From the IMG/VR virus record IMGVR_UViG_3300044712_000063, positions 1 to 33,897 of that record: a stretch of 33,897 nucleotides of DNA, one strand, 5' to 3'. Made by a program: the position numbers and the translations under genes. This DNA comes from a virus. The stretch's first letter is position 1, and every line of letters starts with the position of its first letter. Below are positions 5,137 to 33,897 of the stretch, in pieces. The notes beneath the pieces were generated by a model. The model was not told the DNA's origin and did not search any database. It worked only from the letters and a program-made list of their open reading frames with translations.

Positions 5137-7160
5137 TGACAAACGATTTAGTAATATTGAATTTTGCTGAGGCTAGACAGCCTGAGTACAGAGAAAAAAA
5201 GGGCAGCGGATATATTGAGTTTGGTGAGAGAAATGACTATCCTGGCTACCTTTTAAGCCTATACAATAAGAGTGCAAAGCACAATGCTATTGTGAGAGGG
5301 AAAGTGAATTACATCATAGGAAATGGATGGGCTACAAAAGAGGCTGATCCAGCTGCTGAGGCTTTCATCAATAAGGTGAACAGCTTTGATGAATCATTGA
5401 ATGATTTGACTAGAAAAGTAGACATTGACATTGAGGTGTTTGGTGGGGCATACTTAGAGGTGATATGGTCAGAGTTTGGCGGTCAGCTTACTGAGATAGG
5501 TCACATTGACTACACAAAGATCAGATCAAACAAAGACAATACATCATTTTGGTACAAACAGGACTGGACAGATAGAAAGGAAAAGGAAATAGTATTACCT
5601 GCATTCAATACACAGAACAGACAAGGAAAGCAGATTTTATACATTAAGGAATACAGACCAGGTTTAGAAACTTATGCACTACCTGGCTACATGGGGGCAT
5701 TGAACTTTATTGAATCAGATATTGAGGTATCTAGACATGTACTAGGAAATGCTCAGACAGGGTTTTCTGCTAGTAAACTGATCACATTGCCAAATGGTGA
5801 GCCTACACCTGATGAAAAAAGAAACATTGAAAAAAGGTTTGAAAATAGATTCACTGGATCTGATGGCAAAAAGTTCATTCTATCATTTGTGCAGAATGCA
5901 GACAGAAAGCCTATAGTTGAAGATCTAGGGGCATCTGATTTGACAAAAGAGGATTTCAGCAGAGTAGATACAATGATCCAGCAGAACATTTTTGCAGGAC
6001 ATCAGATCACTACACCTGCATTGTTTGGTATCAGTGAGCCTGGCAAATTAGGCACTAGATCAGAGATGAGGGATGGCTATGAGATATTCAAAAACACCTA
6101 TGTAAATGATAAGCAGCAATTCTTAGAAAGCATTTTCAATATGCTAGCTAGATTGAAAGGTGTGACACAGGAACTGTACATTCAGCCTGTAGAGCCTATC
6201 AGTTTTGAGTTTAGTGAAAATATCATTGCACAGGTAGCACCAAAAGAATGGATCTTAGAAAAGATGGGTATTGATGCATCCAAATATTTACCAATGCCTG
6301 ATGGGACAGTAGCACCACAGGATCAGTCAGTGAATGAGCATTTGAAAGGATTGAAAGGCAGAGAGTGGCAGAACATGCAAAGGATCATAAGAGAATATAC
6401 AAAGGGAAAGATCACCAGGGATCAGGCTACAGCTATGCTAAAAGGTGGCTATGCTTTGAGTGATGATGAGGTGAACACATGGCTAGGCGAGGATGAACAG
6501 ACACAGGCTTTCAAATTTAGTGAGGATGATGTGATCAATATCTTTGCACAGTTTGGTGAGGATGAGGACAAATACAGTGTTTTAAAAAAAAAGAATGTTA
6601 AGTTCAATTCAGTAGAATCAATGGATGATGATGAGGTGATGTCTATGCAGTTTGCTGATATGGTATTGAGTGATCTAGAAAAAAATGTGATTGACTTAGT
6701 GACTAAGGATAAGAGGATCACACCTGAGGTTTTGGCTGAGGTGACATCTACTGAATTGGCAATCATCATCAATGTGATGGAAAGACTTGACAAGGCAGGC
6801 ATTTTAAAACAAAAGGTAGTAGGTGGAGTGATTGAAAGACAGCCAGTGAAACCATTGAGTAAATTGACACCAGGTGAGCCTGCACAGACTACAAATTTCA
6901 AAGTAGTTTACAAATATGACTGGGATTTTGAAAAACTTGCTAGAGTTGGTGCAGTGGCAGATTCTAGTACATCTAGATCATTTTGTAAAAGATTGATGGC
7001 ATTGAAAAAAGTCTATAGCAGATCAGACATTCAGGCTATCACAGCTAGACTAGGCTACAGTGTTTTTGATCGTAGAGGTGGATGGTGGACAATGCCTACA
7101 GGTGATCACAGCCCTAGCTGTAGACATACATGGGTGAGCAATATAGTAATTAAAAAATAA
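5136..7160 (+). CDS. Portal protein with a C-terminal MuF / SPP1 gp7-like head-morphogenesis domain (fusion)
   Basis: 674 aa in the head module. The N-terminal ~450 aa is portal-sized. An acidic linker follows, and the C-terminus 'SRSFCKRL...GGWWTMPTGDHSPSCRHTW' resembles the 'C...HPNCRC' end of MuF-family proteins. Confidence 0.6.
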   Translation: MTNDLVILNFAEARQPEYREKKGSGYIEFGERNDYPGYLLSLYNKSAKHNAIVRGKVNYIIGNGWATKEADPAAEAFINKVNSFDESLNDLTRKVDIDIEVFGGAYLEVIWSEFGGQLTEIGHIDYTKIRSNKDNTSFWYKQDWTDRKEKEIVLPAFNTQNRQGKQILYIKEYRPGLETYALPGYMGALNFIESDIEVSRHVLGNAQTGFSASKLITLPNGEPTPDEKRNIEKRFENRFTGSDGKKFILSFVQNADRKPIVEDLGASDLTKEDFSRVDTMIQQNIFAGHQITTPALFGISEPGKLGTRSEMRDGYEIFKNTYVNDKQQFLESIFNMLARLKGVTQELYIQPVEPISFEFSENIIAQVAPKEWILEKMGIDASKYLPMPDGTVAPQDQSVNEHLKGLKGREWQNMQRIIREYTKGKITRDQATAMLKGGYALSDDEVNTWLGEDEQTQAFKFSEDDVINIFAQFGEDEDKYSVLKKKNVKFNSVESMDDDEVMSMQFADMVLSDLEKNVIDLVTKDKRITPEVLAEVTSTELAIIINVMERLDKAGILKQKVVGGVIERQPVKPLSKLTPGEPAQTTNFKVVYKYDWDFEKLARVGAVADSSTSRSFCKRLMALKKVYSRSDIQAITARLGYSVFDRRGGWWTMPTGDHSPSCRHTWVSNIVIKK

Positions 7161-7165
7161 TAACA

Positions 7166-7759
7166 ATGAGCAGAAATATACTTTTTATTTCAGTAGATAC
7201 AATAAAGGAAAGAACAGGCCTGCATGCAAATGTGGATGAAAAATTGATACTGCCTGAGATCCTGACAGCACAGGACATGTACATATTGCCTGCACTGGGA
7301 ACTGGACTTTATGAAAGATTGCAGGATGGTGTGGCAGCAAATGATTTGACATCAAATGAATCTGATCTCATTGATAGATACATCACAAACTGCCTGGTAT
7401 ACTATGTCATGAGTGAGTTGCCTATGGGCTTATCATATCAGTTCTACAATAAAGGTGTAGTAAGAAAGAGCAGTGAAAATACTGATCTGCCATCTGCACA
7501 GGACATGATTGATGTGGCAGATAGATACAGATCTAGGGCTGAGTTCTACAAACAAAGACTAGTAAAATATTTAAAGCAGGCATCTACTAGTGTGATGTTT
7601 CCTTTGTATAACAATCCAGGAAACGGTGTAGATACGATCATACCTGACAATCAATCATACACTACTAGCATTTGGCTGGGTGATGATTGCTGTGAAAAGA
7701 ACATGACATTTGAGGAAAAATATCAAGGGAACATAAACAGATGCTGTGATGGCGAATAA
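7166..7759 (+). CDS. Hypothetical structural protein (possible head-tail adaptor)
   Basis: The ORF follows the portal gene. No motif recognised; the tail is Cys-rich (CCEK...RCCDGE). Confidence 0.7.
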   Translation: MSRNILFISVDTIKERTGLHANVDEKLILPEILTAQDMYILPALGTGLYERLQDGVAANDLTSNESDLIDRYITNCLVYYVMSELPMGLSYQFYNKGVVRKSSENTDLPSAQDMIDVADRYRSRAEFYKQRLVKYLKQASTSVMFPLYNNPGNGVDTIIPDNQSYTTSIWLGDDCCEKNMTFEEKYQGNINRCCDGE

Positions 7760-14923: not shown

Positions 14924-14955
14924 TTTGGATAGTAAATGATTGTTTACTATATTTG
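14924..14955 (+). promoter_or_regulatory. Bacteroidota-type promoter: -33 TTTG and -7 TAtaTTTG
   Basis: TTTG lies at 14924-14927 and TATATTTG at 14948-14955, 20 nt apart, matching the published Bacteroides/Flavobacterium consensus. The site is just downstream of a terminator and 20 nt upstream of an ATG. Confidence 0.6.
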
Positions 14956-14974
14956 CCATCTAAAACACACAAAC

Positions 14975-15070
14975 ATGAAAAAACAAACAAACTATGGCAT
15001 CCAGGCCATCATCATTTTGATCACTGCATTTTCAGTATTAGCTATCTTACAAGATCCATTTTGCAAATAA
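14975..15070 (+). CDS. Small hydrophobic peptide (31 aa, MKKQTNYGIQAIIILITAFSVLAILQDPFCK), not in the ORF track
   Basis: Translated by hand. It is the first ATG after the promoter, has one TM-like segment, and its TAA overlaps the next ATG (TAATG at 15068-15072). Confidence 0.45.
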   Translation: MKKQTNYGIQAIIILITAFSVLAILQDPFCK

Positions 15071-15531: not shown

Positions 15532-15565
15532 TTTAAAAATAATTTTGAAAAAAAGTGATAATTAT

Positions 15566-15596
15566 TTTGGTAGTATAAAATCTTTTACTAATTTAG
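15566..15596 (+). promoter_or_regulatory. Promoter-like element: TTTG, 19-nt spacer, then TAatTTAG (one mismatch)
   Basis: TTTG lies at 15566-15569 and TAATTTAG at 15589-15596. The region is bracketed by GTGATA (15555-15560) and TATCAC (15597-15602), an inverted repeat. Confidence 0.35.
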
Positions 15597-15617
15597 TATC
15601 ACAAAACACAAAACACT

Positions 15618-15956
15618 ATGAAAGTATTATTTAAAATCATTGACTTTAATGTAGACAGAGATGACAATGCATTGACTGTGGAATTGAACACACACAATAC
15701 ATGTCACATTCAGCTAGATCAATTTGAGGCATGGCTGGAAAGGACTGATAGACTTGACTGGGTAAATGACTGGGCTGATCATGATGGTGATCATTGCCAG
15801 GTGTCAGGGAAATATTCTATCACTGAGTACTGGGGGATTTATTTGGGATGTATTCACAAAGACATCTATGACTACATTGTGATCAATTTTATTGATCCGA
15901 TTAAAGGCATCAAAGATTCTATAACTAAAATAACAAATGAATATGCAGCAGGATAA
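15618..15956 (+). CDS. Acidic early protein, unknown function
   Basis: 112 aa, rich in Asp/Glu/Trp ('DWVNDWADHDGDHCQ'). It is the first gene after a promoter-like region. Confidence 0.65.
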   Translation: MKVLFKIIDFNVDRDDNALTVELNTHNTCHIQLDQFEAWLERTDRLDWVNDWADHDGDHCQVSGKYSITEYWGIYLGCIHKDIYDYIVINFIDPIKGIKDSITKITNEYAAG

Positions 15957-16143
15957 AATGCCTACATGGTGTGATCTAGTACCACAGGAAAGACATCAGC
16001 TGCTGGGTGAGTTAGTAGATGCAATGATCTACAGCCCAGTAGCAGTAATGACAATTCAAAGTCTTTTAAAAGGCTTTAAGAGAAACGGATATGTAAGATC
16101 TACAATTCTACCAAATTCAAATATCACAAATGAAAACCAGTAA
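15937..16143 (+). CDS. Hypothetical small protein
   Basis: 68-aa ORF overlapping both neighbours by a few codons. Confidence 0.55.
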   Translation: MNMQQDKMPTWCDLVPQERHQLLGELVDAMIYSPVAVMTIQSLLKGFKRNGYVRSTILPNSNITNENQ

Positions 16144-16795
16144 ACAAATGACAAATCCAAACATTTACCAGGCTATCAATAGCATCATGCAGGACATTAG
16201 TGCTATAGGTAAAAACAAAAAGAACAGCCAGCAGGGCTATTCATTCAGGGGCATTGATGACATGTACAATGCATTGCAGCCAATGTTCAAAGAACACAAT
16301 GTATTCATTACTAGCAATGTGCTAGAATCTAAAAGAGAGGAAAGACAAACAGCTAAGGGAGGCACACTGATTTATACCATTGCTAAATGTCAGTTCAAGT
16401 TCTATACTATTGATGGATCATTCATTGAATCTATCATTGAGGGAGAGGCAATGGATTCAGGTGACAAGTCTACAAACAAGGCAATGTCTACTGCATTGAA
16501 ATATGCTTTGATGCAAATGTTTCTGATCCCTACAGAGGAAAAACTAGATACTGAATATCACAGCCATGAGGTAGTAGCAAAGACAGTGAAACAGCCTGAT
16601 CCAGTATTGAATGAAATTGATTTAATGGCCAGGAAAGTCTACACTACTGCTGATGACATATTGATAGTGCTGGATAGCTGTGAGACCATTGGACAGCTTA
16701 ATACACTATATCACATGAATAGTAAGCTAGTAGAGGAATCAAATATCAAATCACAATTCACAATAAAGAAAGATGCAATCAGAAAAACTATCTAA
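16130..16795 (+). CDS. ERF-family single-strand annealing recombinase
   Basis: 'GYSFRGIDDMYNALQPMF' and 'DKSTNKAMSTALKYALMQMFLIPTEE' match the remembered ERF signature. An alternative start is ATG at 16148. Confidence 0.8.
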   Translation: MKTSKQMTNPNIYQAINSIMQDISAIGKNKKNSQQGYSFRGIDDMYNALQPMFKEHNVFITSNVLESKREERQTAKGGTLIYTIAKCQFKFYTIDGSFIESIIEGEAMDSGDKSTNKAMSTALKYALMQMFLIPTEEKLDTEYHSHEVVAKTVKQPDPVLNEIDLMARKVYTTADDILIVLDSCETIGQLNTLYHMNSKLVEESNIKSQFTIKKDAIRKTI

Positions 16796-24861: not shown

Positions 24862-25124
24862 TACCTATAGTGATACCAATTTTGTGCCACAATGATGAGA
24901 CTATTGTGCTGAGAGACTTAGATGTAAAAACTACCTACACTAGATTGACTGAGGTAGATTTCATGTTTTTCACCATAGACTTTGCATGTAGGTATGAACA
25001 GGATGGGAAAGAGTACACAGAGATAGTATCAGGTGAGGATTCATTTGTGAGCAGTCTATCATTCAAACAATTTCAGGACATAGTGTATAAAACAAATATT
25101 TATGGCAAAGGCAGCAGCAACTAA
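24858..25124 (+). CDS. Hypothetical protein
   Basis: 88-aa ORF with an ATGA overlap to the upstream gene. Confidence 0.55.
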   Translation: MIPIVIPILCHNDETIVLRDLDVKTTYTRLTEVDFMFFTIDFACRYEQDGKEYTEIVSGEDSFVSSLSFKQFQDIVYKTNIYGKGSSN

Positions 25125-25596
25125 GAAAAAAGCTGCATCTAAAAAGGCAGCAGAAAAGAAACCAGTGGGGAGACCTAAAAACATAGAGACACCTGAGATC
25201 ATGTGGCAGCTATTCCAGCAATATGCAAAAGAGACAAAGAGCAAACCATTAATAGTGAAAGACTGGGTGGGTGGCATAGCAAAAGAGGTCTACAGAGAAA
25301 AGGAAAGGCCATTAACATTGGAGGGCTTTGAAATCTTTGTGATGGACAAACTAGACATGTCAGATCTAGATCAGTATTTTGCAAATAGAGAGGGCAGGTA
25401 CACAAATTTTGTGTCTGTCTGTTCACGCATAAGGAAAAACATCAGAGAGGATCAGATAGCAGGCGGCATGGCAGGGATATACAATCCATCCATCACACAG
25501 CGGTTGAATGGTCTGACTGAAAAGATCCAGGAAGATGGTAACAAAGAGGTGACCATCAAAGTGAAGTACGAAAAGAAAGAAACACCAAAAGACTAG
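25102..25596 (+). CDS. terS: Terminase small subunit
   Basis: It has a Lys/Ala-rich N-terminus, 'GRPKNIETPE', 'PLTLEGFEIFV' (HTH) and '...IAGGMAGIYNPSI', a remembered Terminase_2-type pattern. It lies upstream of terL. Confidence 0.7.
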   Translation: MAKAAATKKKAASKKAAEKKPVGRPKNIETPEIMWQLFQQYAKETKSKPLIVKDWVGGIAKEVYREKERPLTLEGFEIFVMDKLDMSDLDQYFANREGRYTNFVSVCSRIRKNIREDQIAGGMAGIYNPSITQRLNGLTEKIQEDGNKEVTIKVKYEKKETPKD

Positions 25597-25656: not shown

Positions 25657-25962
25657 ATGAAATGGAAACACAAAGTAACTGGATGGACTGCACAGACAGC
25701 ATATTATGAAATGCCAAAATCATCAATTACATGTACAATGATAAAAGATGATAAGCAGGTAAATTTTCATATACCACACGAATTGATTGATGCTGATGAT
25801 AACTGGATACCACAGCCTGATGAAAGATGGCTATATAAGCAAATGACTGCTATGGAGTTTATGGATGCATTTGCAATGACTACTGATCCATCAGGACAAT
25901 CACATGATGCATTTGTTGTAAAATCTTTAATTGATAAAAACTATAATATCACAAACGAATAG
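25657..25962 (+). CDS. Hypothetical protein between terS and terL
   Basis: 101-aa ORF. Its TAG overlaps the terL GTG start. Confidence 0.6.
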   Translation: MKWKHKVTGWTAQTAYYEMPKSSITCTMIKDDKQVNFHIPHELIDADDNWIPQPDERWLYKQMTAMEFMDAFAMTTDPSGQSHDAFVVKSLIDKNYNITNE

Positions 25963-27131
25963 TGGAAAAGACAGTCAGACTAAATGAATTGCATGTAAAC
26001 CAGCAAAAGGTAGTAGATGGCCATAAAAGGTTTTCTGTGCTATCATGTGGTAGAAGATGGGGCAAATCAGCCCTGGCTATCAATCTACTATCTGAGACTG
26101 CCATAGATGGCAAACTAGCTGGGTATTTCACACCTACATACAAACTACTTGATGGGACATTCAATGAGTGCCTGCATGCATTAGAGCCTATCATATCCAG
26201 GAAAAATGATCATCAATTCATTGAACTGATCACAGGTGGCAAAATAGAGTTTTGGAGTTTAGAGAATGAACTGGCAGGTAGATCTAGGAGGTATCACAGA
26301 AACATCATAGATGAAGCGGCATTCGTCAAAAACCTATGGCACAGATGGACTGAATCAATCAGACCTACACTGACAGACTTTAAAGGGGATGCATTCTTTC
26401 TGTCTACACCTAAGGGCAAAAATGACTTTCATAGAATATGGCAGAGAGGCAAATCAGGTGACAAAGGATGGACTAGCTGGCAGATGTCCACCTATGACAA
26501 TCCCTACATAGATCCTAGTGAGATTGATGAGGCTAGATCAGATCTGCCTGAGTTAGCATTCAGCCAGGAATACATGGCAGAGTTCAATGAGAATGTGGCA
26601 AATCCGTTTGGTGCTATGTTTATCCAGCAGTGTACCTATCCAATGAGCAATGAGCCAGCGGTATGCTATGGCATTGACCTGGCAAAGTCTTTTGACTACA
26701 CAGTGATCATAGGCCTAGATAACAATGGCACAGTGTGTCACTTTGATCGTTTCCAGGAAGATTGGAGGTCTACTAAGCAGAGGATCATGAATCTGCCCAG
26801 GTCACCTATCCTGATGGATAGCACTGGTGTGGGTGATCCTATCTTTGAGGATCTACAGGCACAGGGACTAGATGTGACAGGGTTTAAATTCAGCAGCACA
26901 TCTAAGCAGCAGCTGATGACAGGACTGCAAACAGCAATACAGCAAAGAAAGATTGCATTTCCTGAGGGTGCGATCACAGCTGAACTGAACATCTTTGAAT
27001 ATGAGTTCACACCAGGTGGTGTCAAATATTCTGCACCTAGTGGTTTTCATGATGACTGTGTGATGGCTTTGGCACTGGCATGGAATAACCATAATCAAAG
27101 GAGGGGCAGTGGTAGATACAGCTTTGCGTAA
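25962..27131 (+). CDS. terL: Terminase large subunit
   Basis: Walker A 'CGRRWGKS' and Walker B 'IIDEAAF' are present. Nuclease acidic residues lie in 'YGIDLAKSFDYTVI', 'LMDSTGVGD' and 'FHDDCVMALALA'. The start is GTG. Confidence 0.9.
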   Translation: MEKTVRLNELHVNQQKVVDGHKRFSVLSCGRRWGKSALAINLLSETAIDGKLAGYFTPTYKLLDGTFNECLHALEPIISRKNDHQFIELITGGKIEFWSLENELAGRSRRYHRNIIDEAAFVKNLWHRWTESIRPTLTDFKGDAFFLSTPKGKNDFHRIWQRGKSGDKGWTSWQMSTYDNPYIDPSEIDEARSDLPELAFSQEYMAEFNENVANPFGAMFIQQCTYPMSNEPAVCYGIDLAKSFDYTVIIGLDNNGTVCHFDRFQEDWRSTKQRIMNLPRSPILMDSTGVGDPIFEDLQAQGLDVTGFKFSSTSKQQLMTGLQTAIQQRKIAFPEGAITAELNIFEYEFTPGGVKYSAPSGFHDDCVMALALAWNNHNQRRGSGRYSFA

Positions 27132-27185
27132 AGCTATAGCATTACTTGCCTAAACAAAAAGTCAATTTATTACTTTACTAAATAA

Positions 27186-27261
27186 GAAATATATTTCCAA
27201 AATCATAAAATACTGCATACAAAATCACTACAATTCAATCAAATTAGAAACATATTTCCAA
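27186..27261 (+). repeat. Direct repeat GAAA[T/C]ATATTTCCAA, two copies 61 nt apart, in the AT-rich leader
   Basis: Copies at 27186-27200 and 27247-27261. Each is followed about 20 nt later by ATAAA(A)TACTG. Confidence 0.5.
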
Positions 27262-27308
27262 TTTTAAAATTCAGTATAAATACTGATAAATAGTAAAAGA
27301 TATTGTAC

Positions 27309-27316
27309 TATATTTG
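27309..27316 (+). promoter_or_regulatory. TAtaTTTG -7 box upstream of the moron array
   Basis: Exact TAnnTTTG match 24 nt upstream of the ATG at 27340. No clean -33 TTTG was seen. Confidence 0.45.
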
Positions 27317-27339
27317 TGTTTCAACAAAACCAATAAACT

Positions 27340-27783
27340 ATGAAAACATTTAAAGAGCTATTTGCTGGTACTGGAATAGAACCAACAACAAATGAAAATG
27401 GTGGTGTAGATTACAATTTTAATGCTACATTAAAAACAAACGCAGAAGCTTCTGACAAAGCTGTTCTATTAACACCAAAAGGTACATTAACAATAGGAGA
27501 GGAGTATTCAAGTCCTTCTATATCATTCTATAAAAATAATGAAGTTGAAGATGTTATTACTATTAAGTACACTAAGTTTATGTATAAGGGCGAAGAAGTA
27601 AAAGATTTGCAGACCATTTACGATATAATCAAATCATTAACAACAATAGAACTGCCAAGTGATTGGGATATAGATAAAGAAGCATTTAAAGTGCCATTTG
27701 ATGGTAGTGATAACTTTTATGATAGAAGTTTTATCAAGGGTGCTAAATGGATGAAAGAACAAATACTTAACCAAAACAAATAA
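27340..27783 (+). CDS. Moron-array ORF A, unknown function (147 aa)
   Basis: Low-GC ORF with no TM segment or signal peptide. It ends '...NQNK' inside the junction element. Confidence 0.7.
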   Translation: MKTFKELFAGTGIEPTTNENGGVDYNFNATLKTNAEASDKAVLLTPKGTLTIGEEYSSPSISFYKNNEVEDVITIKYTKFMYKGEEVKDLQTIYDIIKSLTTIELPSDWDIDKEAFKVPFDGSDNFYDRSFIKGAKWMKEQILNQNK

Positions 27784-27789
27784 CCTATG
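27769..27789 (+). repeat. Junction element copy 1: AACCAAAACAAATAACCTATG
   Basis: It spans the last four codons, the stop of ORF A and the ATG of ORF B. Confidence 0.85.
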
Positions 27790-27975
27790 AACAAAGATAA
27801 TATGGAAGATCAACTAATGCATACGCCAATAACAAGAGTAGAGGTGATTAACCACGCTAAAAATGATAAACCTATTGGTAGATTGTTAACGCTATATAAA
27901 GAGTTAGGCGATTTCCGTTCGGTTGAATTATCATTTCAAGATGGAGGCAAAACATTAAAAATATTTTTAGACTAA
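27787..27975 (+). CDS. Moron-array ORF B, unknown function (62 aa)
   Basis: Low-GC ORF. Confidence 0.6.
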   Translation: MNKDNMEDQLMHTPITRVEVINHAKNDKPIGRLLTLYKELGDFRSVELSFQDGGKTLKIFLD

Positions 27976-27988
27976 CAAATAACCTATG
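27974..27988 (+). repeat. Junction element copy 2 (3' 15 nt only): AACAAATAACCTATG
   Basis: Here the internal TAA is not the stop codon of ORF B, whose stop is at 27973-27975. Confidence 0.8.
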
Positions 27989-28198
27989 GAAGAGAATACA
28001 AAAGATTTAAAAAATTTATGGGAAGTAGTTAATGCTTTATGCATTTTTAATAAAGGATGGAGTACTGATAATGAAAAAATATTATTTGATAATGCTTCTG
28101 AAATAATAACTAAAAGAGCAGATTATCTTCAATTATTAAACGATAAAAAACTTATAGAAGATAAAATGGAAAAATATTTTCCAAACCAAAACAAATAA
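27986..28198 (+). CDS. Moron-array ORF C, unknown function (70 aa)
   Basis: Low-GC ORF ending '...NQNK'. Confidence 0.6.
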   Translation: MEENTKDLKNLWEVVNALCIFNKGWSTDNEKILFDNASEIITKRADYLQLLNDKKLIEDKMEKYFPNQNK

Positions 28199-28204
28199 CC
28201 CATG
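28184..28204 (+). repeat. Junction element copy 3: AACCAAAACAAATAACCCATG
   Basis: Read directly. Confidence 0.85.
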
Positions 28205-28480
28205 AAAACAGCAATGCAAGAAGCAATAGAAATAATTGAAGAAAGGTTAAAAATATTATCTATTGTACAACAAACCGAATCAACTATGGGATCAATATCA
28301 GGGTATCAATACTCAAAATATCTATTGATGGATTTACTTGAAAAAGAAAAAAAGCAGATAAAAATACTGACTGATGCACTTGAAAGAATTAAAGATTGGG
28401 ATGATGAAATGCATAGTGAATGGGATGATCAAGGAGAATTTGCAAGATTTACACTAAAAACTTATAACCAAAACAAATAA
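28202..28480 (+). CDS. Moron-array ORF D, unknown function (92 aa, acidic, Trp/Asp-rich C-terminal half)
   Basis: Low-GC ORF ending '...NQNK'. Confidence 0.65.
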   Translation: MKTAMQEAIEIIEERLKILSIVQQTESTMGSISGYQYSKYLLMDLLEKEKKQIKILTDALERIKDWDDEMHSEWDDQGEFARFTLKTYNQNK

Positions 28481-28486
28481 CCCATG
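28466..28486 (+). repeat. Junction element copy 4: AACCAAAACAAATAACCCATG
   Basis: Read directly. Confidence 0.85.
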
Positions 28487-28696
28487 AACACACCATTACA
28501 AAACCTAAAGTATTATTTTAGAAATGATGAAACGATTACAAAAAGAGAATTAGAAAGAGCCATTGATGCATTATTTGATAATGAGAGATCATTTTTTATA
28601 GAGGCTTTTAATAAGGGAGTTGCATCTACAGGAGTAATATCTTTAGGGTTAAATAAAGGATTGGATTCTTACAATAGCCTATACAAAACAAACTAG
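28484..28696 (+). CDS. Moron-array ORF E, unknown function (70 aa)
   Basis: Low-GC ORF, followed by a terminator. Confidence 0.6.
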   Translation: MNTPLQNLKYYFRNDETITKRELERAIDALFDNERSFFIEAFNKGVASTGVISLGLNKGLDSYNSLYKTN

Positions 28697-28729
28697 TATA
28701 AGAATTAAACAAAACAATCAATTTGAAAG

Positions 28730-28754
28730 CCCAGCCCAAAAAGCTGGGTTTTTC
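28730..28754 (+). terminator. Rho-independent terminator closing the moron array
   Basis: CCCAGC (28730-28735) pairs with GCTGGG (28743-28748), followed by TTTTT. Confidence 0.75.
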
Positions 28755-28765
28755 TATTTATTGGT

Positions 28766-29440
28766 ATGACATGGAAAGACATCAATGTATTTCAGTGGCA
28801 GCAATTAGCTGACCTACAAAACAATAAGGATGGAATATCAGATGAGGATCTGTCCATCAAGACTATTGCAATCATCACAAATCTGACTGAGCAGCAGATC
28901 AAAGAAATGGGTGAAAGAAAACTGTTTAGGATGGCCAGCAGGCTTAAATTCCTACAGAATAAGTTTGAGGTGACACATGTAGACTATATCCATACAAAGA
29001 CTAGGAGGTACAGGTGTGTGTATGACATTAAAGGAATGCCTACAGCTAGATACATTGAATCAAAACACTTTGCAGCAAATTTTGATGATAACATCCACAG
29101 GATTGCAGCTAGTATGGTGATGCCACAAAAAAGAAACTGGTGGGGCAAATGGGTGGATGATAAGTACCAGGCAGAGAAACATGAGCAGTATGCAGATGAT
29201 CTATTGACTGCACCTATCACTGAGGTCTTAGGATCTACGGTTTTTTTTTGTCATGCATACAGGAACTGGATAAGAGTTTCAAAGGGCTATTTGATATGGC
29301 AGATGATGATGACAGCGAAGATGAGCAGGTTGCAAGCAGAGATAGTGTATCAGGGTTTATGCAGCGTTTTGGATGGATTTATCAGGCCACAATCGTATCA
29401 GAGCATGAAAAAATCAGACTTGAACAAGTCTATGATATGA
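28766..29440 (+). CDS. Virion-module protein, zero-frame product (224 aa) of a gene containing a T9 slippery tract
   Basis: The ORF begins 12 nt after the terminator. The zero frame stays open for 64 codons beyond the T9 tract. Confidence 0.6.
   Translation: MTWKDINVFQWQQLADLQNNKDGISDEDLSIKTIAIITNLTEQQIKEMGERKLFRMASRLKFLQNKFEVTHVDYIHTKTRRYRCVYDIKGMPTARYIESKHFAANFDDNIHRIAASMVMPQKRNWWGKWVDDKYQAEKHEQYADDLLTAPITEVLGSTVFFCHAYRNWIRVSKGYLIWQMMMTAKMSRLQAEIVYQGLCSVLDGFIRPQSYQSMKKSDLNKSMI
29242..29248 (+). other. T_TTT_TTT slippery heptamer within a T9 run (29241-29249), in phase for -1 frameshifting
   Basis: Zero-frame codons are GTT TTT TTT TGT. A -1 shift continues as L-S-C-I-Q-E-L-D-K..., which is the 29248..29535 ORF. 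Confidence 0.5.
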
Positions 29441-29535
29441 TGACAATACAATTTTTAAATGACCTATCCTATTTGAAAGCAAAAGCAGAGTATGACAAAG
29501 AGCAGATAAAAAAATCGTATGGCCAAAAGCATTAA
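29248..29535 (+). CDS. -1 frame continuation (95 codons). With 28766..29248 it would give a fusion of about 256 aa. Alternatively it is an independent 79-aa ORF from ATG 29296.
   Basis: The sequence looks like real protein ('MADDDDSEDEQVASRDS...FGWIYQATIVSEHEKIRLEQVYDMM...'). It overlaps the zero-frame ORF by 193 nt. Confidence 0.55.
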   Translation: MSCIQELDKSFKGLFDMADDDDSEDEQVASRDSVSGFMQRFGWIYQATIVSEHEKIRLEQVYDMMTIQFLNDLSYLKAKAEYDKEQIKKSYGQKH

Positions 29536-30226
29536 GCAAATACAGGATGAGATAGTGAATGATGGATTCCTGGACAATCTAGGGAATGATTCTACAGACT
29601 ATGCAGAAATGGGTGAGTTCCCATCAGTAGAGCAGTTCATGATCAGATCTGCTGCTGCATTTGTGCTGCAAATAAAAGAGGTACTGAATAGGCAGGGGAA
29701 AGTATCTAGTGGAGGTTTAGAGGATGGCATATCAGATGGTGGGCTTAATAAGACAGGGAATGGCTATCAGATCAGCATAGGATGGGATGCATCAGATCCT
29801 GCATCAAAGTACTATGATTTTGTCAATAAGGGTGTCAAAGGTGTAGTGTCAGGCAATCCATCCAGCAGCCCCTATGCATTTAAAAATCTGAAAGTATCTA
29901 GGAATATGCAAAAAAGCATTTTACTATGGTACAGAAAAAGAGGCAATGCAGCTAGAAATGAAGATCAAAGAAAAAAGCTATCAGCTACACAAAGGAAAAA
30001 TAGAAGTCTGAAAAGGAAAGTAGATGCAGCTACAAATCTGAAATCAATGGCCTATGCTACAGCTGTGAACATTAAAAAGAAAGGTATCAAAAGATCAGGA
30101 TTCTTTGATGACACCATCAATAGTGTATTTGGACAAAGTTTTCTAGATGCACTATCTAAGGTAGTAGGCCAGGATGTGAGAATAGCAATCAGGCAAGCAA
30201 ATAACAAATTAAACGAAAATAAGTAA
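29519..30226 (+). CDS. Hypothetical virion protein
   Basis: 235-aa ORF with a basic central region ('RKRGNAARNEDQRKKLSATQRKNRSLKRK'). Confidence 0.65.
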   Translation: MAKSIKQIQDEIVNDGFLDNLGNDSTDYAEMGEFPSVEQFMIRSAAAFVLQIKEVLNRQGKVSSGGLEDGISDGGLNKTGNGYQISIGWDASDPASKYYDFVNKGVKGVVSGNPSSSPYAFKNLKVSRNMQKSILLWYRKRGNAARNEDQRKKLSATQRKNRSLKRKVDAATNLKSMAYATAVNIKKKGIKRSGFFDDTINSVFGQSFLDALSKVVGQDVRIAIRQANNKLNENK

Positions 30227-30229
30227 GAC

Positions 30230-31405
30230 ATGGCAATAACAATCACCAGTACACCTGAGGCATATCCATCAGCACATGATGATCTGTACTTTGTGGCTAC
30301 ATCAGACAATGCTACACAGGCAGGTTTCAAATATGTGTTTGATGTGTACATCAGCAGCAATTTAGTAGCAAGGATCAAACTGTTTCCTGATCCTGGGACA
30401 GCTAAGGGAATATTCAATGCAGGTGGAATTGTGAGAGACTACCTGGCAGGATATTTCAAACCAAACACTACACAGACAGCATTTGCCTACACTGGCAATG
30501 ATCTGTATACAGACTACCAGGTGAGATTTGGTGAGGACTATGGTGGCACTACCTACACAAACCTGGCTAGTGGTGACTATAAAGCATTCAATTTTGTGAA
30601 TCCTGTTTTTAGGGATTTCAGCACATCCTATTTTCAGCCAAAGATCAGCAGCTGGCTGACAGGCAGAGATGTAGCAGCAGCTGAGGTGCAGATGGGTGAG
30701 AAACTGTACACAGGCTGGATGAATACAGCAGGCACTACTACAAATTTAACTTTGACAGTGCAAAAATATTTGAATGGTGGCGGTGCAAATGGATCACCAT
30801 CTACAGGTGCATCTGTGACATGTAGTGCATTTGTACTATTTGATTTGTCACCTGCTGCATTGAATGCATATCTAGGCAGTGAATTTATCACAGCATCTAC
30901 TTATCAGTATGGTGTAAAGGTGAACTATGGCGGCAATCAGTCTGCTGAGTTTAAAATCAGACTAGCATGTCAGCCTAGATGGACACCAGTATCACTGCAT
31001 TTTCTTAATAGACTAGGCGGATATGATACCATGACATTCAGACTAGTGAATAGAAGATCTGCACAGGTAGAAAGAAAAAGCTACAATCAGATGGAGTGGC
31101 AGTATAATGCAGGCAGCATGACCAGGTATGATTCATTCAAAAGGATCAATGCAGGCAGCAATACATTTGCTGTGAATGAGACAGTAAGTTTCAAACTAAT
31201 TAGTGACTATATTAATCAGACTGACTATTTATGGGCGAAGGATCTGATCACTAGCCCTGAGGTATACTATGAGCAAGGTGGGTACTACTATCCTGTTTCA
31301 ATAGGGACAAATACCTGGGATGAGAAAATCAGAGCAGCAGATAAGATGTTCAACTTTGAGTTGAATGTGGAATTTGCACAAAAAATAAATAGTCAATACA
31401 GATGA
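30230..31405 (+). CDS. Hypothetical tail / baseplate protein
   Basis: 391-aa beta-rich ORF in the operon leading to the tape-measure-like gene. Confidence 0.65.
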   Translation: MAITITSTPEAYPSAHDDLYFVATSDNATQAGFKYVFDVYISSNLVARIKLFPDPGTAKGIFNAGGIVRDYLAGYFKPNTTQTAFAYTGNDLYTDYQVRFGEDYGGTTYTNLASGDYKAFNFVNPVFRDFSTSYFQPKISSWLTGRDVAAAEVQMGEKLYTGWMNTAGTTTNLTLTVQKYLNGGGANGSPSTGASVTCSAFVLFDLSPAALNAYLGSEFITASTYQYGVKVNYGGNQSAEFKIRLACQPRWTPVSLHFLNRLGGYDTMTFRLVNRRSAQVERKSYNQMEWQYNAGSMTRYDSFKRINAGSNTFAVNETVSFKLISDYINQTDYLWAKDLITSPEVYYEQGGYYYPVSIGTNTWDEKIRAADKMFNFELNVEFAQKINSQYR

Positions 31406-33501
31406 TAAGTACAGAGATATACATAGAGAATCAGCGGCTGGATCTGTCAAAGGATCTATCTGCTGAGTTCACATATAACATTGATGACATCAAAGACTTT
31501 GCATCTAGGAATACTAACTTTTCTAAAACGATAGTACTACCAGGAAATGCAGTGAACAATAAACTATTTGGTCACATCTTTGAGTTTGGATCATCAAACT
31601 TTTTTGATGAGAATCAGCCAAATGTGGGTTACAATTACAATGTATCAAAAGCAGCATCATGTGTGGTGTTCATTGACAAAGTACAGATTTTTAAAGGCAT
31701 TCTGAGAATATTAGAAATTGTCATAGACAATGGCACAATAGAATACGAATGTGTAGTGTTTGGTGAATTGGGTGGATTCATTAATGAATTAGGAAACAAA
31801 AAGCTGGAAAATCTAGACTTTTCTGCCTATGATCATGACTGGACACTAGCAAACATCCAGGCATCCTGGGACACAGTGAATGGATCAGGCTACTACTACC
31901 CATTGATTGACTATGGAAAGGTGAGCAGCACAAACAAACATGACTGGGACATCAGAGCATACAGGCCTGCATTCTATGTCAGGGAATACCTAGATAAGAT
32001 CATCACAAATTCAGGCTACACCTATGAAGCCCCATTTTTCAATAGTGCTGTATTTCGCAGGCTGATAGTTCCACACAATCAGAAACAGCTAGTGAAAACT
32101 ACTAGTAATTTCAACAAGGCCTATGTCACTGAGCCTGAGGAAATACTATCAGACAGGACAATTTCATTTGATACAGTGACAGGATCAGGTTTGGTAGTGA
32201 GTGGATCAAATAGAACATTCACATACACAGGTGATACATCTATCACATTGAAAATGGAATATGAATTTAATGGTGATTCAACTAGTGGCATTTTCAGGAT
32301 AGCTAGAAATGGATCTACAGTGTATCAATATGATTTTGAGGGTAGCATAGGCATAGGCGGTGTGTTTGAACTGCTAGTGAATAAAGATGATGCAATCAGT
32401 TTCAGATTCAGCAATACAGCACCTAATAGAGATGATCCGCCTGTAGTGGTGAATGATGGACAGGTTTTCTTTTATTCTGATTCATTTGTCACTACACCAG
32501 TGACAGTGAATGATTCACTAGTGATGGCTGATGTAATACCAAAGGGTGTATTTCAAAGAGACTTTTTTGCATCCATCATAAAGATGTTCAACATGTATGT
32601 AGTAGAGGACACATTCAGATCAAAGCATCTGATCATTAAGCCATACATTGAATACTATGATTTTGATGGTCAATCATTGCTAGCAGTGGATGATTTCAAT
32701 AGTCTATTGCAGGTGAATCCTACAGACTTTCTATTGCTTACTGATGGCACAATACAATACCTAGACTGGTCATATAAGGTTGAAAGATCAAAGCCAATGA
32801 GATTGAAGCCTATGAGTGAATTGAATGGTAGATACTTTGAGTTCAAATACAAAGATGATGCAGACTGGTACAATGAGCAATATCAGAAAAAATACAGCCA
32901 GTCATACGGCACTAGATTAGAGGACAGTGGGTTTGATTTTGCAAAAGAAAAACAAACAGCTGAGGTCATTTTTTCAGCTACACCACTGGTGGGATATGAG
33001 GGAGAGGACAAAGTATTCAGCACAATATTCAAACTGAATAACAATGTAGAGGATGCCACTGATCATAATATCAGAATAATGCAGGCAAAGAAAGTGACAG
33101 GTGTGACTAGCTATGCAGTCAAAAATAATGGTACAACACTAGCTACTTTGACTACTTATGGATATGCTGGACACCTGGATGATCCTGATGCACCAAATGC
33201 GGATTTGAACTTTGGAGTGCCACAGCAGCTGTTTTTTGAATTGGCTACAGACTATCCAACAGCAAACCTGTTCAATGCATACTGGTCAGAATATGTGGCA
33301 GAGATAACAAACAAAGACAGTAAGCTATTAAGTGTATATGTCTACCTAAAAGCGAAAGACATATTCAATCTAGACTTTGCAAAGCTGATCTATATAGATG
33401 GGGCTTTATGGAGGCTGAATACTATCATAGACTACAATCCTACAGACATAGGAATCACAAAAGCAGAATTTTTAAAAGTAATTGAAACAACATACGAATA
33501 A
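31402..33501 (+). CDS. Large tail / baseplate protein
   Basis: 699-aa ORF with an ATGA overlap upstream and a TAATG overlap downstream. No enzymatic motif recognised. Confidence 0.7.
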   Translation: MISTEIYIENQRLDLSKDLSAEFTYNIDDIKDFASRNTNFSKTIVLPGNAVNNKLFGHIFEFGSSNFFDENQPNVGYNYNVSKAASCVVFIDKVQIFKGILRILEIVIDNGTIEYECVVFGELGGFINELGNKKLENLDFSAYDHDWTLANIQASWDTVNGSGYYYPLIDYGKVSSTNKHDWDIRAYRPAFYVREYLDKIITNSGYTYEAPFFNSAVFRRLIVPHNQKQLVKTTSNFNKAYVTEPEEILSDRTISFDTVTGSGLVVSGSNRTFTYTGDTSITLKMEYEFNGDSTSGIFRIARNGSTVYQYDFEGSIGIGGVFELLVNKDDAISFRFSNTAPNRDDPPVVVNDGQVFFYSDSFVTTPVTVNDSLVMADVIPKGVFQRDFFASIIKMFNMYVVEDTFRSKHLIIKPYIEYYDFDGQSLLAVDDFNSLLQVNPTDFLLLTDGTIQYLDWSYKVERSKPMRLKPMSELNGRYFEFKYKDDADWYNEQYQKKYSQSYGTRLEDSGFDFAKEKQTAEVIFSATPLVGYEGEDKVFSTIFKLNNNVEDATDHNIRIMQAKKVTGVTSYAVKNNGTTLATLTTYGYAGHLDDPDAPNADLNFGVPQQLFFELATDYPTANLFNAYWSEYVAEITNKDSKLLSVYVYLKAKDIFNLDFAKLIYIDGALWRLNTIIDYNPTDIGITKAEFLKVIETTYE

Positions 33502-33897
33502 TGGCAAACGAAAAAGTAGGTGTAGACATTGAAGTCAATACTGGTGATTCTGACAAAAAGCTAGAGGAAACCAAAGAAAAGATTGATGACCTGGGTGATA
33601 GTGCAAAGAAATCTGCCAAAGATGCCAAAGGTGCAAGCGGTGCATTTGGATCATTAGGCAATGCATTGAAGTCACTGGGGATCATCACAGTGATTGCTAG
33701 TGCATTTAATTTTTTTAAAGAAACACTGAGTAAAAATCAGAAAGTAGCTGACAGTGTAGCTGCTGTGTTCAATACTATTTCAACTATCATCAGCAATCTG
33801 ATTGACATTTTCATCAGTGTCACATCAGAGGTAGGCAAAAGCACAAACGGATTTGAGGCACTAGGAAAGGTGCTAGGCGGAATACTTACACTAGCCA
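33501..33897 (+). CDS. Tape-measure-like protein, N-terminal part (continues into 1..1758 across the circular junction)
   Basis: ATG at 33501 overlaps the upstream TAA. The frame stays open to the window end. The sequence is 'MANEKVGVDIEVNTGDSDKKLEETKEKIDDLGDSAKK...', followed by hydrophobic segments. Confidence 0.75.
   Translation, partial: MANEKVGVDIEVNTGDSDKKLEETKEKIDDLGDSAKKSAKDAKGASGAFGSLGNALKSLGIITVIASAFNFFKETLSKNQKVADSVAAVFNTISTIISNLIDIFISVTSEVGKSTNGFEALGKVLGGILTLA
33771..33897. repeat. Right copy of the 127-nt terminal direct repeat
   Basis: Identical to 1-127. The unit genome length is therefore 33,770 bp. Confidence 0.95.

Follow-up and report, generated by a model that had tools for sequence, protein, structure and literature searches.

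An exact 21-nt stop/start element joins the small genes of an accessory array inserted behind terL and recurs across viral contigs

Whether phage mosaicism originates at dedicated conserved sequences on gene boundaries or through random recombination and subsequent selection has long been debated. Morons, extra DNA between genes that are adjacent in relatives, were reportedly described by Juhala et al. 2000 and Hendrix et al. 2000. In the nin region of lambdoid phages, small non-essential ORFs follow one another beside NinG/Rap, the stop codon of one abutting the start codon of the next, and to our knowledge no conserved sequence common to phage groups lies at the nin junctions. Stoperators of L5 and Cluster A phages are 13–14 bp repressor sites of one immunity group. 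The start-associated sequences (SAS) of Cluster K mycobacteriophages are 13 bp long with a Shine-Dalgarno (SD) core (GGGATAGGAGCCC), number 11–19 copies per genome within one cluster, are thought to have a translational role and sometimes include the stop codon of the upstream gene (PMC3203893, where the stoperators of mycobacteriophage L5 are also mentioned). Promoter-early stem-loops (PeSL) of T4-type phages combine a terminator stem-loop with a sigma-70 promoter (PMC2839356, PMC4122927). In Bacteroidia, SD-less start sites are enriched in A at −11 to −14 and show little structure, and F. johnsoniae favours A at −3 and −6 (PMC6847099).

The window analyzed here comprises the 33,897 nt of IMG/VR virus record IMGVR_UViG_3300044712_000063 (positions 1 to 33,897), in which an AT-rich block of 1.55 kb with five small genes lies between terL and the next gene (Table 1). 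Sequence searches matched what the earlier note had reported for its junctions, namely three exact copies of the 21-mer AACCAAAACAAATAACCYATG (27769, 28184 and 28466, all on the + strand) and 15 nt kept at 27974. Shuffling the sequence 100 times gave an expectation of 0 copies, and the window holds no further copy within 3 mismatches, although a weaker copy of the 15-mer lies at 27328, in front of ORF1. The 21-mer was found in at least 120 IMG/VR contigs of 4–287 kb, the loci being collected as exact matches, so that perfect copies are overrepresented, and cassette genes also occur on contigs of ~300 kb. The genes directly after it encode 154 different proteins, which among the matches listed fall into at least 75 families. 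On the contrary, just 5 contigs carry it among 185,579 bacterial and archaeal species genomes, it is absent from 50,697 GenBank phage records, and its sequence was found in no paper. The element is pan-phage and not private to one genome. This wide spread had not been noticed in the earlier note. One exact 21-mer bounding unrelated small-gene families from a 34-kb phage to contigs of nearly 300 kb offers a concrete, mutable test case for phage gene swapping and for SD-independent reinitiation in Bacteroidia.

Like SAS, the element is short, asymmetric and exact, stands a few nucleotides before the starts of many unrelated non-structural genes in one orientation, that of the genes, and is absent from the host genome. 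Unlike SAS, it measures 21–25 nt, lacks an SD sequence, abuts the ATG, has a stop in each frame, lies at the boundaries of cassettes and is spread over contigs of 4–287 kb. The SAS core can pair with the 3′ end of 16S rRNA, whereas G is missing from the part of the element that precedes the ATG. In its extended form, (T)AACCAAAACAAATAACCYATG(A), the T at −1 and the A at +21 may follow from AT-rich codon bias and a preference for Lys/Asn as second codon.

Comparison with relatives identifies 27176–28724 as a horizontally acquired, inserted accessory array. Backbone homology breaks off at 27132–27175 and picks up again at 28725–28749, and the gap between terL and the next gene is 1635 nt here versus 53–398 nt in 18 of the 19 close relatives (TerL 88–94% identical) with a measurable gap; in the wider family it ranges from 0 to 2349 nt. 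With a GC content of 0.282 against 0.383 in the remaining genome, 27132–28754 is the lowest-GC 1.6-kb window of the genome (the next lowest outside it reaches 0.344). Its CpG observed/expected ratio is 0.37 versus 0.15 in the backbone, and 12 CG dinucleotides are seen in the block versus 4.8 expected under backbone depletion (arithmetic from computed counts). One relative, L022, carries at the same site a different array of six ORFs, which has nothing but ORF5, the junctions and the terminator in common with ours. There the element is fused onto the 3′ end of terL, inside which lies an identical copy of the 12-mer ACTATATTTGTG that surrounds our promoter box, and the place of the decayed terminal copy is taken by TACAAAACAAATAACATATG plus a 5-codon stub. 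Around the block, no target-site duplication and no terminal inverted repeat was convincing; we observed just a 7-nt TCAATTT microhomology.

These results agree with most of what the earlier note had said of the block. All five + strand ORFs (147, 62, 70, 92 and 70 aa) are present, hand counts of 25–28% GC against 40% come close to the computed values, and the 208-nt leader holds a box of the TAtaTTTG type (TATATTTG at 27309, without a −33 TTTG). Foreignness is borne out by variation in presence and content at the terL|next-gene site together with the distinct GC and CpG, the 21-mer is not a genome-wide junction sequence, and no virion family was matched. Two claims stood only in part. The terminator taken to be the block's own is a strong hairpin at 28725–28753, but a hairpin followed by TTTTCTATTTA lies directly 5′ of the next gene in every relative without the block, so the place of this terminator belongs to the backbone and is not the block's alone; the stem is similar to those of the array terminators in L022 and L001, and L022 has both an array terminator and the backbone hairpin. 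The single CTAG at 28693 is there, but its depletion is not significant. Composition alone predicts ~4 copies, and we rejected CTAG avoidance as a mark of foreignness; the backbone has 188 copies versus 190 by its own trinucleotide expectation.

The block resembles a moron in being extra DNA of deviant composition between genes adjacent in relatives, with a promoter-like box before it and a terminator behind it; it is unlike one in being a five-gene array instead of one gene, in sharing its terminator position with the backbone and in having a repeated adapter inside. We consider it probably a multi-gene moron, and the interval from terL to the following backbone gene a recurrent insertion hot spot.

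Table 1. Features of the block, its flanks and a further gene of the same phage, with evidence or remarks.
Feature	Position	Strand	Evidence or remark
terL (large terminase), left backbone flank	25962..27131	+	phrog_2 E=2e-37; Terminase_6N/6C
Backbone intergenic remnant, common to block-less relatives	27132..27175	+	L001/L002/L007-L009 homology ends here
Inserted AT-rich accessory array, leader and five cassettes	27176..28724	+	missing in 18/19 relatives; GC 0.278
Leader box 1 AAATAAGAAATATATTTCCAA, palindromic core GAAATATATTTC, candidate operator	27180..27200	+	direct repeat D10
Leader box 2 AAATTAGAAACATATTTCCAA, 61 nt past box 1	27241..27261	+	repeat search
AGTATAAATAC box, kept in ORF1-homolog leaders	27273..27283	+	L208 alignment, L209 sequence
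TATATTTG, predicted Bacteroidota-type −7 promoter box (TAnnTTTG)	27309..27316	+	23 nt before ATG
Degenerate element copy as 5′ leader of ORF1 (AACAAAACCAATAAACTATG)	27323..27342	+	repeat families D2-D5
ORF1, 147 aa, ends WMKEQILNQNK	27340..27783	+	mosaic family, ~200 members
Junction 1, exact 21-mer, T at position 17	27769..27789	+	
ORF2, 62 aa	27787..27975	+	phrog_10600
Junction 2, 15-nt core; contained TAA is not the ORF2 stop	27974..27988	+	
ORF3, 70 aa	27986..28198	+	47% aa homolog in L163 array
Junction 3, exact 21-mer, rare C17 variant	28184..28204	+	
ORF4, 92 aa, MKTAMQE...LEKEKEQI family	28202..28480	+	231 representatives at 50% identity
Nucleotide-conserved hinge for LEKEKKQI, intragenic module boundary	28331..28361	+	93-100% nt matches, >15 unrelated loci
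Junction 4, exact 21-mer, rare C17 variant	28466..28486	+	
ORF5, 70 aa	28484..28696	+	89% aa homolog in L022, different neighbour before it
Decayed terminal element copy (ACAAAACAAACTAG)	28683..28696	+	L022 counterpart
Intrinsic terminator hairpin	28725..28753	+	-19.3 kcal/mol, z = -3.7
224-aa gene, right backbone flank	28766..29440	+	after terL in all relatives; no family match
Erf-like single-strand annealing protein gene, same phage	16130..16795	+	phrog_155 E=1e-30

The way the junction is spelled supports the earlier proposal that its conservation acts on nucleotides rather than on the peptide, as judged from sequence comparison. Where the element encodes Asn-Gln-Asn-Lys-stop (NQNK), the spelling AAC CAA AAC AAA TAA is near-fixed, being used in 126 of 134 cases at motif-ascertained loci and in 4 of the 5 TerL-ascertained cases, and this despite AAT making up 70% of the Asn codons of array genes; about one third of the element copies are not read as NQNK. 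Junctions are identical while the dS of the flanking cassettes runs from 0.43 up to saturation. After 154 of the 174 copies of the 17-mer core (89%), YATG follows at the same spacing, and the C17 variant was seen elsewhere in 2 of 154 copies. An alternative that these numbers address is that the element has no function of its own and consists of the inherited 3′ end (..YYNQTYNQNK-stop) and the start region of the MKTAMQE family, in young copies spread by tandem duplication and recent exchange. This family is indeed the commonest neighbour, found upstream of the element at 30% of sites and downstream at 14%, and its consensus C-terminus is YYNQTYNQNK, a tail in which the 5′ half of the element is repeated. 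We nevertheless find such an origin quite improbable, given that the family stands on neither side at 57% of sites, that the element is identical beside cassettes with saturated synonymous sites, that it also occurs in non-coding leaders after promoters, and that the ATG spacing is so widely kept.

At the RNA level, three of the four junctions fold with 0 to −0.1 kcal/mol, and the −4.9 kcal/mol of junction 3 reflects a small upstream hairpin, the element itself being unpaired in all four. Its AAAA tract occupies −14 to −11, which together with low structure and the lack of an extra AUG nearby likens it to the SD-less start regions of Bacteroidia (PMC6847099). In this phage, only 2 of 39 backbone genes have SD-like motifs, and backbone genes show maxima of A at −13 and −11, a pattern shared with F. 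johnsoniae (PMC6847099). The element differs from those start regions in being exact instead of degenerate, in being absent from host genomes and in lacking A at −3 and −6, where it has C and U (the latter being the T of TAA), respectively, and thus it is not simply an optimal start site. Since backbone genes, including structural ones, have similar A/C-rich leaders and never the exact 21-mer, the latter is not needed for translation in this host. Of 153 sites, 101 have the upstream ORF ending at the frame-0 TAA, 29 at the −1 TAA and 9 at the TGA of ATGA. All three stops are used, and a three-frame-stop “design” is in itself a weak argument.

In L087, L146 and L159, a TTTG-N19-TAnnTTTG promoter stands immediately before the element. 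That the element could itself be a promoter for a phage-specific RNA polymerase or sigma factor, with each cassette transcribed separately, is hardly credible. Phage-specific promoters are ~20 nt long, exactly conserved and located at gene junctions, as the element is. It ends at the ATG, however, and would give leaderless or intragenic transcription starts; it does not match the Bacteroidota −33/−7 consensus (the host being probably a member of the Bacteroidota), no sigma-70-like site was found at any junction, a conventional TAnnTTTG box precedes the first copy, and the carriers are too diverse for one polymerase.

Conservation beyond the needs of this host's ribosome, in an asymmetric and gene-oriented sequence next to the start codon, would also be expected of a binding site for a sequence-specific regulator, protein or small RNA, that switches all cassettes together. 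Such a site could be likened to a T4 RegA-type translational operator or to the stoperators of mycobacteriophage L5, which are also short asymmetric sites in many copies at gene junctions, oriented with transcription, and its exactness would be that of the regulator's specificity. Absence from host genomes, as for start-associated sequences (PMC3203893), fits this reading, and so do the conserved palindromic boxes at array heads, from which the arrays appear to be regulated units; the leader box, for instance, is present in 3 copies before the ORF1 homolog of a 300-kb contig. Scanning IMG/VR for it with AGAAAYATATTTCCAA returned mostly chance single matches, 15 specified AT-rich bases being too few for an informative scan, and the element core followed within the next 3 kb in just 4 of 119 matches, in which it directly abuts the box. 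We regard a common regulator as unlikely, because it would have to be host-encoded or very widespread to serve carriers ranging from 34-kb phages to ~300-kb contigs, no shared factor was found among the mixed larger ORFs near the element, and vestigial stubs and cassette-level breakpoints would be left unexplained.

Those breakpoints are recurrent. Cassette homology ends at elements in L173 (27768–27998), in L022 (from 28465) and in L135 (27762–27978), and one and the same cassette has different neighbours on different contigs. The ORF2 cassette with both its junctions is 87.5% identical in L173 (dN/dS 0.08), ORF1 has an 88% nucleotide-identical copy on a 299.7-kb contig, and dN/dS is 0.16 for ORF5. 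In total, HSP endpoints are enriched 4.5-fold within 15 nt of the element; alignment endpoints at gene boundaries are also expected from random recombination with selection for intact genes, and the element by itself lengthens alignments. Vestigial stubs of 4–5 codons follow terminal junctions. Cassette proteins are themselves mosaic around nucleotide-conserved hinges, as in the ORF4 family, whose N- and C-terminal modules recombine around the LEKEKKQI hinge. This organization recalls PeSL, which are likewise conserved regulatory sequences between small non-essential ORFs of variable regions and points of homologous exchange at which unrelated genes are inserted, deleted or replaced. PeSL are structured and belong to T4-like myoviruses, whereas the element is unstructured, shorter, read as translational and found across phage lineages.

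Taken together, these observations lead us to favour, with moderate confidence, an element that acts as a translational stop/restart adapter and also lets cassettes be shuffled by offering a patch of homology. The earlier note had put forward a cassette-exchange junction and a termination-reinitiation signal as alternatives, and both fit the new evidence. The five small genes of cytoplasmic type would be cassettes from a very large pool of small genes common to uncultured phages of SD-less hosts, probably Bacteroidota. In the mRNA, the adapter would form an unstructured, G-free initiation region with a Bacteroidia-type A-tract, would end the upstream frame through its stops in three frames and would have the next gene begin 4 nt later, presumably through ribosome reinitiation; right after a promoter, it may constitute the entire 5′ leader. 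At the DNA level, copies that are identical over at least 21 nt could offer a homology patch to co-infecting phages, the Erf-type annealing protein of the phage being a possible means of short-homology recombination. Exchange at such patches would swap, insert or delete whole cassettes, and recombination there would keep the junction sequence homogeneous and spread it. We suggest only tentatively that the adapter is the core of an enzyme-independent gene-cassette system, an integron without an integrase. If it were, hundreds of small genes would have standard ends that stop, restart and recombine, phages of one host group could plug cassettes in and out by one exchange and have them expressed at once, and the junction would stay exact as perfect copies spread best.

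A dedicated DNA enzyme acting on the element, either an integron-like site-specific recombinase or a homing endonuclease that prompts cassette transfer through repair of its cuts, seems very doubtful to us. The 21–25 nt length and the asymmetry would suit a homing-endonuclease site, and genes of relevant kinds do occur nearby: the larger ORFs up to 2 kb away from the element include NinG/Rap, endonucleases, replication genes and lysozymes, a varied assortment in which NinG/Rap, a recombination nuclease, forms the largest cluster (16 ORFs) and 113 representatives include 4 matches to GIY-YIG, 3 to HNH_3 and 2 to NUMOD1. Endonuclease genes, however, lie near just a minority of arrays, and no integrase, endonuclease or recombinase was found in or beside the block of this window. 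A homing site is normally missing from the genome that encodes its enzyme. Neither do the element and block show the imperfect inverted repeats, hairpin and nearby integrase of integron attC sites, repeat search and folding having revealed no inverted repeat at the junctions. NinG, as the most frequent larger ORF near element-bearing arrays, relates them to the nin region, from which the array of this window differs in following terL and not lying beside ninG.

All five block proteins are hydrophilic, have no hydrophobic segment and show a pI of 4.8–6.2, consistent with the cytoplasmic character initially attributed to them. Searches against Pfam, NCBIfam, PADLOC and PDB sequence profiles yielded no significant match, and phrog_10600 (no function assigned), for ORF2, was the lone match in PHROGs. 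AF2 models of ORF1 and ORF4 reached a pLDDT of 63.8 and 69.0, respectively, with Foldseek E > 1 against PDB and BFVD; none of these searches returned a homologue or fold match to a known anti-defence or host-takeover protein, the putative role suggested in the earlier note. Among GenBank phages, block DNA (near and distant searches), ORF4 by tblastn and a probe of the junction plus MKTAMQE gave none or one chance-level match. The host cannot be read from relatives because TerL is at most 35% identical to that of any cultured phage. Scans for Rfam families (gathering threshold) and tRNAs found nothing.

The 21-mer also provides a handle to search metagenomes for accessory small-gene arrays, whose members are candidate host-takeover or anti-defence genes. 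Within 2 kb of the element, one larger ORF among the 113 representatives has a match to the Thoeris inhibitor Tad3.

Five ORFs (147, 62, 70, 92 and 70 aa) occupy the interval from terL to a 224-aa gene at 28766, in a block whose GC content (0.282 versus 0.383 elsewhere) is the minimum among all 1.6-kb windows of the genome. The ORFs, their 21-nt junctions and the low GC content described in the earlier note were all confirmed, and the junction element proved to reach far beyond this genome. The CpG observed/expected ratio of the block is 0.37 (by our own arithmetic, 12 CG where the depletion of the backbone predicts 4.8), and its contrast with the backbone is an independent compositional sign that points to foreign origin; other element-bearing loci have a median ratio of 0.64. 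The scarcity of CTAG, also proposed as a signal, is none, with one copy against about four expected. We compared the gap between terL and the homolog of the 224-aa gene in 80 TerL relatives taken from IMG/VR. This distance ranges from 0 to 2349 nt. It is measurable in 19 of the closest relatives (88-94% in TerL), and all but one of these have 53-398 nt. Backbone DNA homology with relatives stops at 27132-27175 and restarts at 28725-28749, which places the insert at about 27176-28724. The sole close relative with a long gap, L022, carries a different array of six small ORFs at the same site and matches the window array in nothing but ORF5 (89% aa), junction elements and terminator; the last codons of its terL are replaced by the promoter box ACTATATTTGTG and an element copy, and this terL now ends in VIHQNK-stop. 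Assorted small ORFs of lower GC content also follow terL in more distant relatives, so the site is a general hot spot. The moron reading of the earlier note is thereby borne out as to insertion, GC and CpG: the block has the position and composition of a moron, with a promoter (box TATATTTG, 23 nt upstream of the ORF1 ATG) and a terminator that are candidates only. The terminator may not be the block's own, as the predicted terminator hairpin (28725-28753) occupies a place, directly before the 224-aa gene, at which all relatives likewise carry a hairpin and TTTTCTATTTA.

The five block proteins are hydrophilic and mildly acidic, and searches for a family, fold or defence-related match to them returned nothing. 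The anti-defence or host-takeover role put forward in the earlier note is a conjecture. Purifying selection acts on ORF2 and ORF5 (dN/dS 0.08-0.28). ORF2 (27787-27975) corresponds to phrog_10600, with distant homologs, all annotated as hypothetical, in Mycobacterium and Rhodobacter phages, a spread that marks it as a small phage protein which has travelled very widely. These homologs are 38-45% identical and come from roughly 32 Mycobacterium phages and one Rhodobacter phage, RcXuper. The ORF4 family counts 231 representatives at 50% identity, and Pfam contains no model for it.

The exact 21-mer AACCAAAACAAATAACCYATG, of which no copy is expected by chance, joins ORF1 to ORF2, ORF3 to ORF4 and ORF4 to ORF5; the junction of ORF2 and ORF3 retains its last 15 nt, a looser copy stands in front of ORF1, and the window genome has no further copies even when three mismatches are allowed. 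The 21-mer is present in at least 120 IMG/VR stretches, on contigs of 4 to 287 kb among the matches listed, and, in a set of 185,579 species genomes of bacteria and archaea, on five contigs; five copies lie on one 19-kb contig binned as Sediminibacterium, and two more contigs are binned as Bacteroidetes or Draconibacterium. It was found neither in 50,697 GenBank phage records nor in the searchable literature. The element is undescribed so far, and is unusual in its exactness, its breadth and its three-frame stop/start layout. Among the matches listed, at least 154 distinct proteins (median 71 aa) are preceded by the exact 21-mer, and fall into at least 75 families, 51 being singletons. Such junctions commonly link six to nine small genes into one array, and array GC is below that of the phage's own backbone in 78 of 83 loci (mean 0.289 versus 0.337). 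Conservation around the 21-mer fades beyond about −8 to +26. The earlier note held that conservation acts here on nucleotides, which the spelling of the Asn-Gln-Asn-Lys-stop ending corroborates: it is AAC CAA AAC AAA TAA in 126 of 134 motif-ascertained and 4 of 5 TerL-ascertained loci, although 70% of the Asn codons of array genes are AAT. Junctions are also identical beside cassettes whose synonymous divergence runs from 0.43 up to saturation. The element is conserved at the nucleotide level. Mere young common descent from the 3′ end of the MKTAMQE family (ORF4-type proteins) remains a rival explanation, given that this family ends in YYNQTYNQNK and neighbours 43% of the sites, but at the other 57% neither neighbour belongs to it.

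Several features of the element relate to translation. YATG follows at the same spacing in 154 of 174 copies of its 17-mer core, which were sampled without requiring an ATG; the remainder look mostly like chance matches within coding sequence. The element is G-free and unpaired, with a minimum free energy of 0 to −0.1 kcal/mol for three of the four junction folds and, for the fourth (−4.9 kcal/mol), a small hairpin that lies upstream of the element; no Rfam family matches it. The genome does not use Shine-Dalgarno (SD) sequences, an SD-like tetramer being present in only 2 of 39 backbone genes. Backbone start sites have A peaks at −13 (74%) and −11 (69%) and are depleted in G, a pattern of Bacteroidia described for F. 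johnsoniae (PMC6847099). The element has its AAAA run at precisely −14 to −11, but −3 is C and −6 is U. Comparable leaders occur in front of backbone genes (for example ..AAAAACAAATAACATG at 3136), none of them the exact 21-mer. The best-conserved flanks are T at −1 and A at +21 (84% each), with which the element has a stop in every frame. Of 153 sites, 101 have an upstream ORF (30 aa or longer) that terminates in the frame-0 TAA, 29 have one that terminates in the −1 TAA and 9 one that terminates in the TGA of ATGA; 14 sites have no upstream ORF. Where there is no upstream gene, a Bacteroidota-type promoter, TTTG-N19-TAnnTTTG, comes immediately before the element (element-bearing loci L087, L146 and L159), so that the element makes up the whole 5′ leader. 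That the element is itself a phage-specific promoter, or a dedicated regulator-binding site, remains as a rival reading. Considering start-site style, promoter style and MAG bins, we infer that the phage host probably belongs to the Bacteroidota. In its working, the element most resembles the start-associated sequences (SAS) of Cluster K mycobacteriophages (PMC3203893) and the PeSL cassettes of T4-type phages (PMC2839356, PMC4122927), but it is a member of neither, lacking the SD core and cluster restriction of the former and the promoter and stem-loop of the latter. It is not attC-like.

Where the window resembles other contigs at the DNA level, the similarity begins and ends at junctions, and alignment endpoints in element-bearing loci lie within 15 nt of an element in 11.7% of cases versus 2.5% for local random positions. 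All five window ORFs have homologs beside different neighbours in other element-bearing contigs; a contig of 299.7 kb has a copy of ORF1 that is 88% nt-identical, preceded by a leader in which the same palindromic boxes occur. The last array junction is often followed by a useless stub (MKPGN-stop in the TerL relatives L002 and L022, MRKK-stop in L003), and the terminal element copy of the window has decayed to ACAAAACAAACTAG. The C17 variant is found at both junctions flanking ORF4 and elsewhere in only 2 of 154 copies. ORF4-type proteins differ in which N-terminal and C-terminal modules they combine on either side of an invariant LEKEKEQI hinge, whose coding DNA (28331-28361) shows 93-100% identity across more than 15 loci, and P0081-like proteins of the array pool consist of the ORF4 N-terminal half and the ORF1 tail. 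The phage itself encodes an Erf-type annealing protein. In other contigs, the larger ORFs found up to 2 kb from the element repeatedly include NinG/Rap, GIY-YIG and HNH genes, and a recombinase or homing-endonuclease target remains another explanation of the element.

Features of the window and of related contigs
Feature	Position	Strand	Remark
Portal gene	5136-7160	+	
Erf-like annealing protein	16130-16795	+	
TerS	25102-25596	+	clear identification
TerL	25962-27131	+	clear identification
Conserved 224-aa gene	starts 28766	+	right-hand neighbour of block
Leader box copies, window	27180-27200 and 27241-27261		
Leader box copies, other contigs	L209 5799-5900; L256 4709/4770; L266 1848/1908		
ORF2 and both junctions	27768-27998		87.5% identical to L173
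ORF2 alone	27762-27978		similarity to L135
ORF3	28001-28231		similarity to L163
ORF5 through terminator	28465-28753		similarity to L022
Chimeric-module examples	ORF4 28202-28480; ORF1 27340-27783		also P0074, P0081, P0084, P0127, P0166

The best-supported reading of these comparisons has two linked parts: the block would be a multi-gene moron put together from a shared cassette pool, and its junction a stop/restart adapter for SD-independent translation, whose exact identity would double as a recombination linker. A translational role would account for the fixed place of the element at ATGs, its orientation, its lack of structure, its A-tract and its use as a 5′ leader. This role leaves unexplained the retention of all 21 positions, given that looser versions suffice for backbone genes. 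Exactness, breakpoints, stubs and spread across phage lineages would instead follow from the linker role, or from selfish spread of perfect copies. The comparative patterns that suggest the linker role could, however, arise in part through selection for intact genes.

Pool proteins are chimeric, with modules of 20-50 aa joined at the invariant peptides MKTAMQE, LEKEKEQI, LTPIELPSD and WMKEQILNQNK, and the N-terminal 32 residues of ORF1 are nearly invariant across proteins otherwise 40% identical. Among larger ORFs (110 aa or more) no further than 2 kb from the element (L081-L207), a NinG/Rap-like protein is the most frequent (cluster of 16), and one representative matches the Thoeris inhibitor Tad3 (E=1e-23). 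In the close relative L001, the same site holds a single-gene moron (7168-7477) with a 53-aa ORF, a stretch TTTTGG..TATAAT that resembles a promoter, ATCAAAACACAAAAACTATG as its leader, and a terminator that is a homolog of the one in the window. The array leader of the window repeats, about 61 nt apart, a box AAAT(A/T)AGAAA(T/C)ATATTTCCAA with the palindromic core GAAATATATTTC, which has the appearance of an operator bound by a dimeric regulator. Upstream of the ORF1 homolog on the 300-kb contig the box is present three times, and the same spacing recurs in two unrelated contigs; an IMG/VR scan with the 16-mer of this box gave mostly chance matches. Leaders of ORF1 homologs also conserve AGTATAAATAC (window 27273-27283; L208 about 5940; L209 about 5915 and 5935), which contains TATAAATA, the T4 late-promoter octamer.

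All genes of the window are on the + strand. The window is an entire metagenomic contig. An exact 127-nt direct repeat at its ends (1-127 and 33771-33897) shows a circularly assembled or terminally redundant contig of ~33.77 kb, which is therefore a complete genome of about 33.8 kb. Its backbone (1-27131 and 28755-33897) is extremely depleted in CpG (observed/expected 0.15; 175 CG versus 1159 expected), with an excess of CA (1.54) and TG (1.45) in a deamination-like signature, and with 0 GCGC, 1 TCGA, 2 CCGG and 4 ACGT in 32 kb. This depletion is common to all close TerL relatives (0.06-0.20; L001-L022), versus medians of 0.5-0.75 for other phage loci. The spacer between terL and the next gene in relatives (window 27128-27175; L002-L018) consists of the recurring short motifs TAAAGCTATCCCTTTACTTT, AAAGTAAAGCTATTGACTTACTTT, ACATAAGTCAA and TTTATCAATCAA, perhaps repeats with a role in regulation or packaging; a hairpin comes next, and its stem differs between relatives by compensatory changes. 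Promoter-proximal A/C-rich leaders of element-like style occur in the backbone at 14948-14996 and 15555-15620 (TATATTTG...AACAAACAAACTATG and ATCACAAAACACAAAACACTATG), and possibly indicate where early transcription units begin.
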